Source: an uncultured Flavobacteriales bacterium (GTDB lineage: Bacteria; Bacteroidota; Bacteroidia; AKYH767-A; 2013-40CM-41-45). From it: a stretch of DNA of 64,000 nucleotides. A program made the translations under genes and the position numbers. How positions within the stretch are numbered: position 1 is the stretch's first letter; every line of letters begins with the position of its first letter. Shown here piece after piece: positions 36,867-41,549 of this stretch. The stretch spans positions 13,732 through 77,731 of the forward strand of contig CAYHHK010000002.1 in assembly GCA_964356415.1 (NCBI GenBank). The letters run 5' to 3'. The notes under the pieces were generated by a model, which had not been told where the DNA came from, did not search any database, and saw only the letters and a list, made by a program, of their open reading frames with translations.

Positions 36867-37959
36867 ATGACAATCGTACAATTAAAAGATTTAAAGGAGC
36901 GTATTGAAGCCCTGAGGGGGTTTCTTTGACGTAGAGGGAAAACTGAAAGCAATCAAAGAGGAAGAGGATAAATCCCATTCGCCTGATTTCTGGAATAATC
37001 CAAAGGAAGCAGAAAAATTACTCAAAGGAATCAAGCAAAAGAAAAACTGGACTGTTGCATTTAACGCATTGAATAGTTCTTATGAAGACCTCAGCGTACT
37101 ATTTGACTTTTTAAAAACAGGCGACACTTCAGAAAAAGAAGTGGATGAACACTATGTTCAAACCTTGAAACTTCTTGATGATCTGGAGTTCAAACGAATG
37201 CTTGGAGGTGAAGAGGATCAGCTGAATGCCATCCTCAATATCAACAGTGGTGCAGGCGGAACTGAAAGCCAGGACTGGGCTGATATGCTCATGCGCATGT
37301 ATATTATGTGGGGCGAGAAAAATGGTTACAAAGTTGTTGAAGTCGATAAACAGGAAGGTGAAGCGGCAGGGATAAAGTCCGCAACGCTTGAATTCACCGG
37401 TGATTTTGCTTACGGATATCTCAAAGCTGAAAGCGGAGTCCACAGACTTGTCCGTATTTCTCCTTTTGATTCAAATGCCAAGCGGCATACTTCCTTTGCT
37501 TCTGTCTTTGCTTATCCCGTTGTTGATGATACCATAGAAATCGAGATCAAAGATGCAGACCTTGAAGTCCAGACTTCCCGCTCCGGAGGTGCCGGCGGAC
37601 AGAACGTAAACAAGGTTGAAACCAAGGTTCAGATGAAGCACTTACCTACAGGTATTGTTGTCGTTTGCCAGGTAGAGCGCTCGCAAGGCGGCAATAAGGC
37701 ACGTGCTTTGAAAATGTTGAAGTCACAGTTGTATGAATTGGAACTACGGAAACGCAATGATGCAAAAGCTGTAACAGAAGCAGGGAAGAAAAAAATCGAA
37801 TGGGGTTCTCAGATACGTTCTTACGTTTTTCATCCGTACAAAATGGTGAAAGACCTGCGGACTGATTATGAGACCAGCGATGTTCAGGGCGTGATGGATG
37901 GTGACCTGAATGAGTTTATGAAGGCGTATTTGATGGAGAATGCGAGTACGAAGGTGTGA
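36867..37959 (+). CDS. prfB: peptide chain release factor 2 with programmed +1 ribosomal frameshift
   Basis: Frame 0 runs 36867..36926 ([20 protein letters not shown]) and ends at CTT TGA C (36924-36930), preceded by an SD-like AGGGGG. The +1 frame 36928..37959 continues [13 protein letters not shown]... The SPF, GGQ ([11 protein letters not shown]) and peptide-anticodon regions of RF2 are present. Confidence 0.9.
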
Positions 37960-38112
37960 GGAGGTGATGAGGTTAAGGAGTTACGAAGTGATTAAGTGAC
38001 GAGGTGGGAATGTGACTGGGTGAGATTGAAAATAATTAATCCCGCATATATCAGTCTTAGATTAGCAACAATATCCCGAACTTTGATTTCTAAATCATAT
38101 GCTTTAGGAACA

Positions 38113-38478
38113 ATGCGCCCACATCGAAAACTAATTGCCTGGCAGGAATCAATTCAATTTGCAAAGGATATTTATCTTCTAGCTCGATTACTTCCCAGTG
38201 AAGAAAAATTCGGCTTAACCTCTCAAATGAGAAGAGCAGTTGTTTCAATTTCCCTGAATATTGCTGAAGGAGCAGCGAGGCAATCTGAAAAAGAATTTAT
38301 CAGATTTCTTTTCTTCTCTGAAGGATCTTGCAGCGAAATAGATACACTACTTGAGATTTGTAAAATCCTAGAATACTTCCCAGAAGAAAAACTGGAATTC
38401 TATATAAATAAAAATGAAAAAATTTCAGCTTTGGTTATGGGCCTTAGGAAAAGCCTTGAAAGAAAAATCGGAAGATAG
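38113..38478 (+). CDS. four-helix-bundle protein (TIGR02436; 23S rRNA intervening-sequence protein family)
   Basis: IAWQESIQFAKDIYLLARLLPSEEKFGLTSQMRRAVVSISLNIAEGAARQS. The start is taken at the internal Met; the upstream 39 codons look non-coding. Confidence 0.65.
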   Translation: MRPHRKLIAWQESIQFAKDIYLLARLLPSEEKFGLTSQMRRAVVSISLNIAEGAARQSEKEFIRFLFFSEGSCSEIDTLLEICKILEYFPEEKLEFYINKNEKISALVMGLRKSLERKIGR

Positions 38479-38590
38479 GCTCACGAAATCTTCCTACAGA
38501 CTGCTTTGCTTTCCTCAACTTACTATTTACTCACACATAAACTGAGGCACCTAGTCACTTCGTTACACGGCCTTTTATTTACTTCATCCC

Positions 38591-38935
38591 TTGATACAAA
38601 TATTCTACAAACCCAACTGCTCAACAAGCATTTCTGCTCTCCAACTCCTCAAAAAAAATTCAAAAGAGGAAATTGAGAAGATTGAATACCTCCTTGATAC
38701 TCCTTCAGAAAAAAAACTGAAAGCAATCCTGAAGCTCCTTGGCATGAAAGCATCAGAATTCATCCGGAAAAAGGAGCCGCTTTTCAAGGAAAAATTCGAA
38801 GGGAAAAAACTTTCAGAATCTGAATGGATAAAAATCATGGTGGAAAATCCTATCCTGATTGACAGGCCTATTGTGATCAGAGACGGGAAAGCGGTTTTAT
38901 GCCGGCCTGCTGAAAAAGTGCTTGAGTTATTTTGA
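38591..38935 (+). CDS. ArsC/Spx/YffB-family thioredoxin-fold protein
   Basis: MIQIFYKPNCSTS N-terminal Cys motif. 114 aa. Confidence 0.6.
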   Translation: MIQIFYKPNCSTSISALQLLKKNSKEEIEKIEYLLDTPSEKKLKAILKLLGMKASEFIRKKEPLFKEKFEGKKLSESEWIKIMVENPILIDRPIVIRDGKAVLCRPAEKVLELF

Positions 38936-39565
38936 TTTTTTCGAACCCTGATAATATTTACAAACAGGATTCATCACGCAGTCTGAACATTTCGGATCTG
39001 TTGGCCTACAAATTTCACGTCCAAGGAATGAAAAAACCATTCCGATATCCCAATCATCCTGAGGAATAACTTTCATTATTTGTTCTTCAATTTTTTTGGG
39101 GTCTTCTCCATTTGCGATGCCTACACGAGGAGCAACACGAAGCACGTGAAGGTCCACGATCACACCTTCGGGTTTTACTTTTGCTTCGCGCATAATCACA
39201 TTTGCTGATTTTCTTCCTATTCCCGCCAGCGCCGTCAATTCAGCCATGGTAACAGGGATATTCTCTTCTGACTTTAAACGCTGTGCAATTTCAACTAACC
39301 ATTTTGTCTTTTTGAAAAAACTGCGCACCTTTCCAATGTAAGGTTGCAAGCCCTCTGTGGTTGCCCGGGAAAGGGATTCCAAATCGGGATATGCCTTAAA
39401 CAATGCCGGTGAAAGCTGATTGATAAGATCATCGGTAACCTGGGAGGAAAGCACCACCATGACCAGCAATTCATAACGGTTTCTGTAAAGCAAAGGATGT
39501 TTTTTCCCTTTGTATTTTTTCAACAGGGGTTGAATGGCTTCGGCCCAGTTTATTTTGGGTGGCAT
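38927..39565 (-). CDS. nth: endonuclease III
   Basis: HhH-GPD (LTALAGIGRKSANVI). C-terminal C-x6-C-x2-C-x5-C 4Fe-4S cluster (CRPTDPKCSDCVMNPVC). Confidence 0.9.
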   Translation of the reverse strand: MPPKINWAEAIQPLLKKYKGKKHPLLYRNRYELLVMVVLSSQVTDDLINQLSPALFKAYPDLESLSRATTEGLQPYIGKVRSFFKKTKWLVEIAQRLKSEENIPVTMAELTALAGIGRKSANVIMREAKVKPEGVIVDLHVLRVAPRVGIANGEDPKKIEEQIMKVIPQDDWDIGMVFSFLGREICRPTDPKCSDCVMNPVCKYYQGSKKSK

Positions 39566-39682
39566 AGCAGAAAATTAGTTGGCTAAAACTAAGTTATCAA
39601 TGTGACACCATAAAAATATTTTAATCTTAAAATCGTACTTTTGCCGGCGCAAAGGACAATTATTCAACAAAACTTAATAATT

Positions 39683-39928
39683 ATGAATCTCCAGGCAGAA
39701 AAAAAATGGATCAAATCTGAAGTTGACAAAATCAACGATGAGTCATTGATTCAGGCTTTTAAAAATCTCCTCGATTTCGCAAGAAAGAAAGCGTACAACG
39801 TGAATCATTCTCCAATGAGCATGGAGGATTTCTTTCAGCGAATTGACATTTCAAAGGAAGACATCAAAAAGGGTCGGGTTAAAAATCACCAGAAGGTTAA
39901 GGCAGTTATTGAGTCATGGAGAAAATAA
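39683..39928 (+). CDS. putative type II antitoxin / addiction-module component (TIGR02574-like)
   Basis: 81 aa from the internal Met (the track ORF starts at 39641). C-terminal ISKEDIKKGRVKNHQKVKAVIESW. Its 3' end overlaps by 13 nt the ATG of a RelE/ParE-like ORF. Confidence 0.4.
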   Translation: MNLQAEKKWIKSEVDKINDESLIQAFKNLLDFARKKAYNVNHSPMSMEDFFQRIDISKEDIKKGRVKNHQKVKAVIESWRK

Positions 39929-40137
39929 AGTTATCGATCATCTAAGTTAATACGCTTGAAAAAGGCTTTGAAAAAAGGGGACAACGTGAATTGTTACTTG
40001 CACATTACAAGGAAGAATATCGATATCTCCTTTCAGGGAATTACAAAATAATTTATTCCTTATTGGATGGAGTAGTCTACATCAATTCCATTTTTGATGT
40101 GAGACAAAATCCCGAAAAACTCTCTCACAAAAAATAA
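39916..40137 (+). pseudogene. degraded RelE/ParE-family toxin gene (in-frame TAA at codon 10, N-terminally shortened)
   Basis: Single frame [94 protein letters not shown] matches the RelE/ParE core (WRLRIGDYRIIYRIDDE..VYIL). The TAA lies at 39943-39945. Confidence 0.45.
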
Positions 40138-40148
40138 TCATATTAAAT

Positions 40149-41549
40149 ATGCAATTCCGCAAAGAAAAAGACACCATGGGAACCGTTGAAGTTCCTGCAC
40201 ATGTTTACTGGGGCGCACAAACACAACGTTCCATTGAAAACTTCAAAATCGCCGAGGACATTAATAAAATGCCGAAAGAAATAATACAGGCATTTGCTTA
40301 CCTCAAGAAAGCAGCAGCACTTACCAACCTCGATGCAGGCATTTTGACGAAGGACAAATGTGACCTGATTGCAAAAGTTTGCGATGAAATTCTCGAAGGA
40401 AAACTGGATGATCAGTTTCCGCTCGTTGTATGGCAGACCGGCAGCGGCACGCAAAGCAACATGAATGTGAACGAAGTGGTTGCTTATCGGGCACACGTGC
40501 TTAGCGGTGGAAACTTACTTGATGAGAAAAAAGCGATTCATCCGAATGACGACGTTAATAAATCACAATCGTCTAATGATACCTTCCCCACCGCCATGCA
40601 CATCGCTGCTTACAGGATGCTGATGGAAACAACGATTCCGGGAATAAAGAAACTCAGGGATACGCTTGCGGCAAAGTCAAAGGAATTTATGGCGGTTGTA
40701 AAGATCGGGCGCACTCATTTTATGGATGCCACTCCCCTCACCCTCGGGCAGGAAATCTCCGGATATGTTTCTCAGCTTGATCACGGCATCCGTGCCATTG
40801 AGCATACACTTTCACATCTTGCAGAATTAGCACTCGGTGGAACTGCAGTTGGTACCGGAATCAATACACCTCCCGGATATTCCGAAAATGTAGCAAAGCA
40901 TATTGCCACACTCACAAAGCTTCCGTTCGTAACAGCAGAAAATAAATTTGAATCACTGGCTGCACATGATGCCATTGTAGAAGCACACGGTGCATTGAAA
41001 ACTGTGGCAGTAAGCCTGATGAAAATCGGAAATGACATCAGGATGTTGTCTTCCGGCCCGCGATGCGGCATCGGAGAAATATTTATTCCTGACAATGAGC
41101 CGGGATCCAGTATTATGCCCGGTAAAGTAAATCCTACACAATGCGAAGCAATAACCATGGTGGCTGCACAAGTTATGGGAAATGACGTAGCCATCAATAT
41201 TGGTGGTGCAACCGGCCATTTTGAGCTGAATGTCTTTAAGCCGGTGATGATCTATAACTTCCTTCACAGCGCACGCCTGATCGGTGATGCCTGCGTTTCA
41301 TTTAATGATAAATGTGCAGTTGGCATTGAGCCAATTCATGAAAATATAAAGAATAACCTTTACAATTCATTGATGCTTGTCACAGCCCTCAACACCAAAA
41401 TTGGATATTATAAAGCAGCGGAGATTGCCCAAACAGCCCATAAACAAGGCAAAACTTTAAAACAAACAGCCATTGATCTTGGTTATGTTACATCTGAGCA
41501 GTTTGATGAGTGGGTGAAACCGGAGGAGATGGTGGGGGAAATAAGGTAG
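40149..41549 (+). CDS. fumC: class II fumarate hydratase
   Basis: [16 protein letters not shown] signature. 466 aa. Confidence 0.95.

Follow-up and report, generated by a model that had tools for sequence, protein, structure and literature searches.

[quoted passage not shown] In the PaaA2-ParE2 system of E. coli O157 (5czf/5cw7), the partner of the ParE-fold toxin is a small antitoxin, purely helical and lacking a recognizable DNA-binding fold, and a third gene encodes the regulator PaaR2. Such modules can erode toxin first, the toxin being inactivated and the antitoxin kept, which is the most frequently reported state of erosion; the decay of the chromosomal ccdO157 locus in E. coli is reportedly one example. 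A survey of TA loci in Photorhabdus counted 185 toxin-only pseudogenes and 186 cases in which both genes were lost, against 8 antitoxin-only cases, and also recorded repeated acquisition of TA modules at the same genomic location (PMC13617665).

The locus described here lies in a stretch of 64,000 nucleotides from an uncultured member of the Bacteroidia, which is referred to below as the window. We identify it, with a probability of about 0.9, as a chromosomal parDE-like type II TA cassette between nth and fumC in which the toxin gene is dead and the antitoxin gene is intact. The first-pass annotation of this DNA had proposed a decaying type II module with the same division between an intact antitoxin and a dead toxin, and this is borne out by related genomes in which the orthologues at the same site are intact. 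The 81-codon ORF that it placed at 39683..39928, the 13-nt overlap with a second frame, the TAA at codon 10 of that frame, and the peptide and coordinates given for it all match the sequence. The features of the locus are the following:

38927..39565, reverse strand: left flank, nth (endonuclease III, HhH-GPD), divergent from the cassette; from the ORF list, with Pfam labels taken from syntenic contigs.
39636..39643, forward strand: possible promoter -7 box TACTTTTG, 40 nt 5' of the antitoxin ATG; read from the sequence, and fitting TAnnTTTG.
39683..39928, forward strand: antitoxin gene, intact, 81 aa; predicted all-helical by the model, from a family without a Pfam or NCBIfam model.
39916..39945, forward strand: 5' stub of the toxin pseudogene, 9 codons (MEKIKLSII) and then the in-frame TAA at 39943-45; shares 13 nt with the antitoxin 3' end.
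39942..39946, forward strand: deletion junction, with 99 nt gone between the T of Trp-10 (TGG) and the last bases of the Lys-43 codon; reads TAA.
39946..40137, forward strand: 3' part of the toxin pseudogene, 63 codons and a stop, equivalent to residues 44-106 of the intact toxin.
40149..41549, forward strand: right flank, fumC (class II fumarate hydratase); from the ORF list, with Pfam Lyase_1/FumaraseC_C on syntenic contigs.

The antitoxin ORF was listed with two starts (39641/39683..39928, forward strand) and terminates with the TAA at 39926-28. The upstream start, a TTG at 39641, gives an extension found in no homologue, and all antitoxin homologues begin MNLQAEK, so the ATG at 39683, which yields the 81-residue protein, is the real start. 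The toxin frame opens at the ATG at 39916 and, past its in-frame TAA at codon 10, runs to a terminal TAA at 40135-37; fumC starts 11 nt beyond this stop codon. The layout is thus bicistronic with a small antitoxin gene upstream, and the 13-nt overlap of antitoxin and toxin (ATGGAGAAAATAA) is identical across all intact relatives.

Alignment of the window with the intact syntenic alleles (DNA alignments A1 and A5) revealed that it is exactly 99 nt shorter, in frame, at the TAA. The intact alleles read ...ATC ATA TGG ACA GAT AAG ... TAC GAT AAG GTT AAT..., where the window has ...ATC ATC TAA GTT AAT.... Residues 10-43 of the toxin (WTDKALSDLNYIYLFIVPKSEVAAYKTILKIYDK) are swapped for a stop with a net loss of 33 codons, and in the stub, residues 1-9 are unchanged from the intact toxins. 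On the model of P0001, an intact 106-residue orthologue, the deletion takes the last part of strand 1, the whole of helix 1, and the greater part of helix 2, and the 3' part of the pseudogene maps to the end of helix 2, the β-sheet, and the C-terminal helix. Because the TAA lies exactly on the deletion junction, formed from the T of Trp-10 and the end of the Lys-43 codon, it is a deletion scar and not a lone nonsense mutation. Two details of the first-pass annotation are revised by this result: the toxin, said to be killed by a single TAA, carries a 99-nt internal deletion of which the TAA is the junction, and the toxin, said to be about 20 aa short at its N terminus, keeps its first 9 codons and lacks 33 codons internally, at the TAA. 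A simple nonsense mutation in a complete, naturally short toxin gene would account for a TAA in frame at codon 10 with the frame open on both sides, but the intact orthologues are 101-110 aa long and contain 34 residues at a position that in the window holds nothing but a stop, and the difference at the TAA is exactly 99 nt. Alignments A1, A3, and A5 already refute this explanation, and we consider it extremely improbable.

The TAA junction is unreachable by one clean deletion of any extant intact sequence and needs either a prior AAG>AAA change or a later TAG>TAA change. No single clean deletion of TAC GAT AAG GTT yields TAAGTT, and slippage between GATAAGG repeats, considered as a single-step origin, predicts a 90-nt deletion without a stop, which was not observed.

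The antitoxin protein of the window was found identically on 7 contigs, three of which were retrieved: L004 (ERZ4201064), L005 (SRR24858484), and L006 (SRR24858483). Across the 601 nt that were compared, none of the three differs from the window, the 38-nt junction string included. The presence of the same junction in three independent assemblies excludes a sequencing error, which the first-pass annotation had named as a condition under which the toxin would be intact. An artifact of sequencing or assembly that conceals a real, intact toxin would have to have produced the identical junction string and 601-nt region in three assemblies from different runs, and a 99-nt deletion is atypical of base-calling error; nothing speaks for such an artifact, and the odds of it are negligible. 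The exact junction string had no match in the GTDB species genomes, and a degenerate junction pattern returned only one metagenome-assembled genome (MAG), that of locus L010, from the GTDB species genomes and nothing from the JGI metagenomes.

In L003, one of the related, metagenomic contigs with the syntenic site, the order is ArsC, nth on the reverse strand, an 81-aa antitoxin, a 106-aa ParE, and fumC, and the toxin is intact. The same ArsC-nth(-)-antitoxin-toxin-fumC order, again with an intact toxin, is shared by L012-14 and L015-17. The comparison with intact homologues in related genomes, proposed earlier as a check, was thus run and disclosed an intact 106-aa toxin at the same site. The combination found in the window, a disrupted toxin and an intact antitoxin where the syntenic orthologues are intact, is that of a decayed TA module, and the locus is a case of ordinary toxin-first decay, a new instance of a well-documented phenomenon. 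As in the toxin-first erosion surveyed in Photorhabdus, the toxin is inactivated and the antitoxin kept, intact and eroded copies are found at one syntenic site, and the interval is one of high turnover. There is no difference in kind; the particulars here are that the stop was made by a deletion junction and that the same junction occurs in a divergent lineage. The locus adds a documented case from an uncultured member of the Bacteroidia to the pattern.

A search of a large protein collection with the read-through translation returned 12 proteins, 12/12 with PF05016. The best of them, P0001, matched with E = 3.9e-29 and 89% identity, and tblastn of P0001 against the window gave E = 4.7e-34 over 39916-40134, far beyond chance. 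The earlier claim that the stretch downstream of the TAA derives from a toxin and is not anonymous intergenic sequence is upheld by this identity, and in an annotation the 220 nt that separate the antitoxin gene from fumC should be recorded as a ParE pseudogene. The tblastn search with P0001 found no second ParE-like or antitoxin-like match in the 64 kb.

The HMM search of the read-through product, which had been suggested as the test of family membership with an empty result named as grounds for refutation, gave no ParE or RelE match and is uninformative for a fragment without the N-terminal helices. With hmmscan at a threshold as loose as E ≤ 10, neither the 73-aa read-through (X for the stop) nor the 48-aa ORF within it matched any family in Pfam or NCBIfam, so that the family assignment depends on the orthologues. 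Against the PF05016 ParE_toxin cut-off of 23 bits, the intact relatives scored 32.2 (P0001), 33.3 (L003), and 33.0 bits (L007), and the 106-aa homologue in L009 scored 20.5 bits, just under the cut-off; 3 of the 4 tested orthologues pass. The profile of the toxin family also matches the solved ParE chains 6xrw, 6x0a, and 3kxe, and its best-matching portion is the N-terminal helices, the very piece absent from the window copy. The HMMs miss the remnant because these helices are deleted, and since intact orthologues of 89% identity pass PF05016, placement in the ParE/RelE superfamily is right despite the empty scan. As a fragment, the copy in the window derives from a PF05016 member but does not score as one itself. 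A true pseudogene can thus escape an HMM scan with its read-through translation, and comparison with orthologues finds such a gene at once.

The P0001 model (pLDDT 80.8, pTM 0.73; scores of 43-57 for the other four models) comprises a strand (7-10), two helices (12-25 and 30-49), four strands (56-58, 68-73, 76-83, and 86-94), and a C-terminal helix (99-105). Its best matches in the PDB are ParE toxins, led by 6x0a (TM 0.75-0.86, 31% identity) and followed by 6xrw, 5ceg, 5czf, 8c24, and 3kxe, whereas comparison with RelE, YoeB, and YafQ gave TM values of only about 0.5-0.6. The model and the profile mark the toxin as ParE-like rather than RelE-like, and its family suggests its activity; of the earlier label "RelE/ParE-like," the superfamily stands through the orthologues, and the RelE half falls away. 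The intact orthologue resembles the toxins of ParDE systems in passing PF05016 and in its predicted fold, an N-terminal two-helix hairpin on a 3-4-stranded antiparallel sheet. The window toxin differs in being a pseudogene without the hairpin, as helix 1 and most of helix 2 are absent, and where a toxin of this superfamily has an uninterrupted frame of ~90-110 codons (101-110 in the relatives compared here) it has 73 codons in total, interrupted at codon 10.

The window antitoxin is 98% identical to P0013, whose contig bears an intact toxin. An exhaustive profile search (E ≤ 1e-3) collected 342 clusters at 50% identity, nearly all of them of ~80 aa. The window protein and 62 family members had no Pfam or NCBIfam match, and a profile search found no PDB sequence match, the best being a non-significant one to the C terminus of RelB (E = 1.6). 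A gene of this family lies directly upstream of a PF05016 gene in L003, L007, L012-17, and L019-22, and in L009 upstream of the sub-cut-off ParE homologue; these loci are a sample of those harboring the 342 clusters. In every locus examined, including those of members only ~35% identical, the gene is upstream of and overlaps its partner, which is the arrangement of a type II antitoxin. Judged by gene order, the 81-aa protein is an antitoxin, a label given by association with ParE-family genes. What would be annotated as an 81-aa "hypothetical protein" may therefore be named an antitoxin, and it belongs to a fairly large ParE-linked family for which Pfam and NCBIfam hold no model.

The antitoxin model (pLDDT 90.7, pTM 0.43) has four helices (3-15, 20-41, 47-62, and 69-80), and a Foldseek search with it found no significant fold match in the PDB. 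The helices are confidently predicted and their mutual arrangement is not fixed, as expected for an antitoxin that would wrap around its toxin. Unlike the partner in ParDE systems, this protein is not a ParD: it has no ParD or ribbon-helix-helix HMM match, and the four-helix model lacks the N-terminal β-strand of the strand-helix-helix fold, which argues against that class. The likeness to PaaA2-ParE2 lies in the pairing of a ParE-fold toxin (TM 0.75-0.77) with a small, purely helical antitoxin without a recognizable DNA-binding fold. It differs in that the 81-aa antitoxin has no detectable sequence or fold similarity to any PDB chain and in that the window cassette has no third gene for a PaaR2-like regulator. 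Beside identical copies of a distant family member, P0049, the adjoining ParE was called at 92 aa in two loci (L019:1734-2012 and L021:687-965) and at 104 aa in a third (L020:1734-2048), a spread that may represent further toxin length variation or erosion.

Upstream of the antitoxin gene, the candidate -7 box corresponds to TAnnTTTG, the Bacteroidetes -7 promoter consensus described for Bacteroides promoters. The box is kept in L003, L012, and L015, and L010 has TACTTTCG instead; it is a possible promoter element of the antitoxin. A scan for sigma-70-type promoters and terminators gave nothing above chance. In the same divergent intergenic region of nth and the antitoxin, a short palindrome, TTTGC-CGGC-GCAAA, lies at 39640-39653, where it overlaps the putative -7 box and extends directly 3' of it. 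L003 shares the palindrome only in part (TTTGCCGGCTCAAA); it could be an operator.

We propose the following history for the cassette. In its intact form, which related contigs show at this site, it is a single operon for two proteins, the 81-aa all-helical antitoxin and a 106-aa ParE-family toxin, and the two genes overlap by 13 nt at the antitoxin stop. As with characterized ParE toxins, the target poisoned by the intact toxin would be DNA gyrase, and the antitoxin would keep the toxin inactive by wrapping its C-terminal helices around it. In the window a net 99-nt in-frame deletion has removed residues 10-43, and because the junction reads TAA, translation of the toxin stops after 9 residues; a read-through product, if made, would be missing the helical hairpin of the fold, which lies against the β-sheet. 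With its gene intact, the upstream region kept, and substitutions of the purifying type, the antitoxin is probably still produced. We lean toward regarding the orphan antitoxin as a recent, neutral leftover, or as weakly useful, rather than as a gene kept for a purpose.

Substitution patterns between the window and L003 were compared across the cassette and its flanks. In nth (80% nucleotide identity), the ratio of synonymous to non-synonymous differences is 89:36 (dS 1.47, dN/dS 0.052), and in the 5' part of fumC (85-87%) it is 60:12 over the first 180 codons (dS 0.9-1.1, dN/dS about 0.03). The antitoxin (93.9%) has 12.5:2.5 (dS 0.36, dN/dS 0.036) and departs from neutrality (p = 3e-7), and the toxin remnant (93.8%) has 4.5:7.5 (dS 0.12, dN/dS 0.42) and does not differ from it (p = 0.08-0.29). 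For the contrast between the two, which is based on small counts, the Fisher test gives p = 0.007-0.057 according to how the counts are rounded. Only 6 changes in the antitoxin and 6 in the remnant are unique to the window (antitoxin 5 synonymous to 1 non-synonymous, remnant 2 to 4; Fisher p = 0.24), too few to demonstrate that the antitoxin stayed constrained once the toxin was lost. The antitoxin looks constrained and the toxin remnant relaxed; the direction is right, with the window-unique difference non-significant. We read this as a recent loss of the toxin, with the antitoxin still intact.

These counts bear on whether the remnant makes a functional product, either a 48-aa C-terminal fragment (TTG 39991..40137) or a split or trans-acting piece. 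Such a product would fit the 63-codon frame that follows the TAA without a stop or frameshift, and the deletions in both the window and L010 are in frame (99 and 6 nt). However, 63 open codons in a recently killed gene are expected by chance, and the prior for two in-frame deletions is ~1/9. The fragment would also lack helices 1 and 2, the pair that lies against the sheet in all ParE structures, and the substitutions in the remnant are mostly non-synonymous and clustered (SLSEG>SLLDG, KLKNKK>KLSHKK), with a dN/dS of 0.42 versus 0.04 for the antitoxin. A functional remnant is accordingly very improbable, and we retain the reading of a dead toxin gene.

The cassette is less diverged than its surroundings. 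The synonymous difference is 0.20 within it and 0.59 in the flanks (p = 1e-12), and a sliding comparison gave a block of 90-98% identity from ~39640 to ~40190, with flanks at 66-90% and occasional patches at 92-96%. The lower divergence indicates that the cassette was exchanged among lineages more recently than its surroundings. Within the flanking genes, patches of 90-96% identity to L003/L015 occur at 38891-39091 (nth) and 40739-41139 (fumC), the rest of those genes being at 66-87%; these patches point to mosaic homologous recombination between lineages.

A second dead allele is found in the MAG "Bacteroidia bacterium" GCA_038206355.1 (L010, L011, and L018), the most distant relative, which is roughly 77% identical and whose nth is 75% identical. 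At L010:3234-3548, the ParE frame is nearly full length and has a 6-nt deletion that replaces YDK by a stop at codon 41 (between KI and VKT), and the antitoxin is intact. The window has the same TAA and the same right-hand junction, T followed by AAGT, and both deletions end within the second copy of a 7-bp repeat, GATAAGG (codons 12-14 and 42-44). The L010 toxin is ~80% identical to the others, and its dN/dS of 0.07-0.08 shows that purifying selection acted on it during most of its history; directly to the left and right of the TAA, the window resembles L003. These two observations make common descent of the stop hard to reconcile. A two-step origin, in which an L010-type allele suffered a further 93-nt deletion, fails as simple descent, as L010 is the most distant relative and the window is L003-like up to the TAA, and an intermediate allele, with the 6-nt deletion in an L003-like background, was absent from the collections scanned. 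The shared junction might mean that the toxin is recurrently knocked out at one specific nucleotide position, through a hotspot at the second GATAAGG, through micro gene conversion, or through the horizontal spread and selection of a disarmed, antitoxin-only anti-addiction allele. We think it doubtful that any such process was at work, and coincidence is also possible. The junction shared by two lineages matters only if it marks a hotspot or a selected disarmed allele.

The selected form of this idea can be put more broadly: the disarmed cassette would be kept because the antitoxin serves as an anti-addiction or immunity gene against incoming related ParE toxins, and loss of the toxin would be adaptive. 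An intact antitoxin with overwhelmingly synonymous substitutions fits this, as do the exchange by recombination indicated by the low synonymous difference of the cassette, the distant L010 lineage with its own intact antitoxin and stop-killed toxin, and the gathering of small addiction-type cassettes in the interval between prfB and fumC. Neutral toxin-first decay, however, predicts retention of the antitoxin too, and the counts on the branch after inactivation are too small (p = 0.24). The L010 antitoxin has 6 unique amino-acid changes, including R65P beside the near-invariant Gly-64, and together with the altered -7 box these look more like the onset of decay. A cognate ParE is absent from the rest of the 64-kb window, PLSDB plasmids gave no match to the intact toxin or to the antitoxin, and phage records contained only distant toxin matches at 32-35% identity. 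We therefore regard selection for the disarmed cassette as unlikely and keep to ordinary toxin-first decay.

The interval between prfB and fumC is a small hotspot for cassettes, with high turnover. In the more distant L007:540-4539 (GCA_964432885.1), a homologous antitoxin and ParE pair lies upstream of arsC, not between nth and fumC, and adjoins an MNT/HEPN (NTP_transf_2 + HEPN) pair and a large Por_Secre_tail protein, an arrangement that indicates that the interval collects small cassettes. The window itself has an insertion of ~630 bp at 37960-38590, between the prfB stop and an arsC/Spx-like ORF (38591..38935, TTG start), which bears a 23S_rRNA_IVP, four-helix-bundle gene (PF05635, about 38083..38478). 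This insertion is present in the window, L004/L005, and L010 and absent from L003, L012, and L015, where prfB and arsC overlap. The prfB gene (release factor 2, 36868-37959) has a classical programmed +1 frameshift site at 36924-36930: the ATG at 36868 is followed by an SD-like AGGGGG and, after that, by CTT TGA C, and the main frame runs to 37959.
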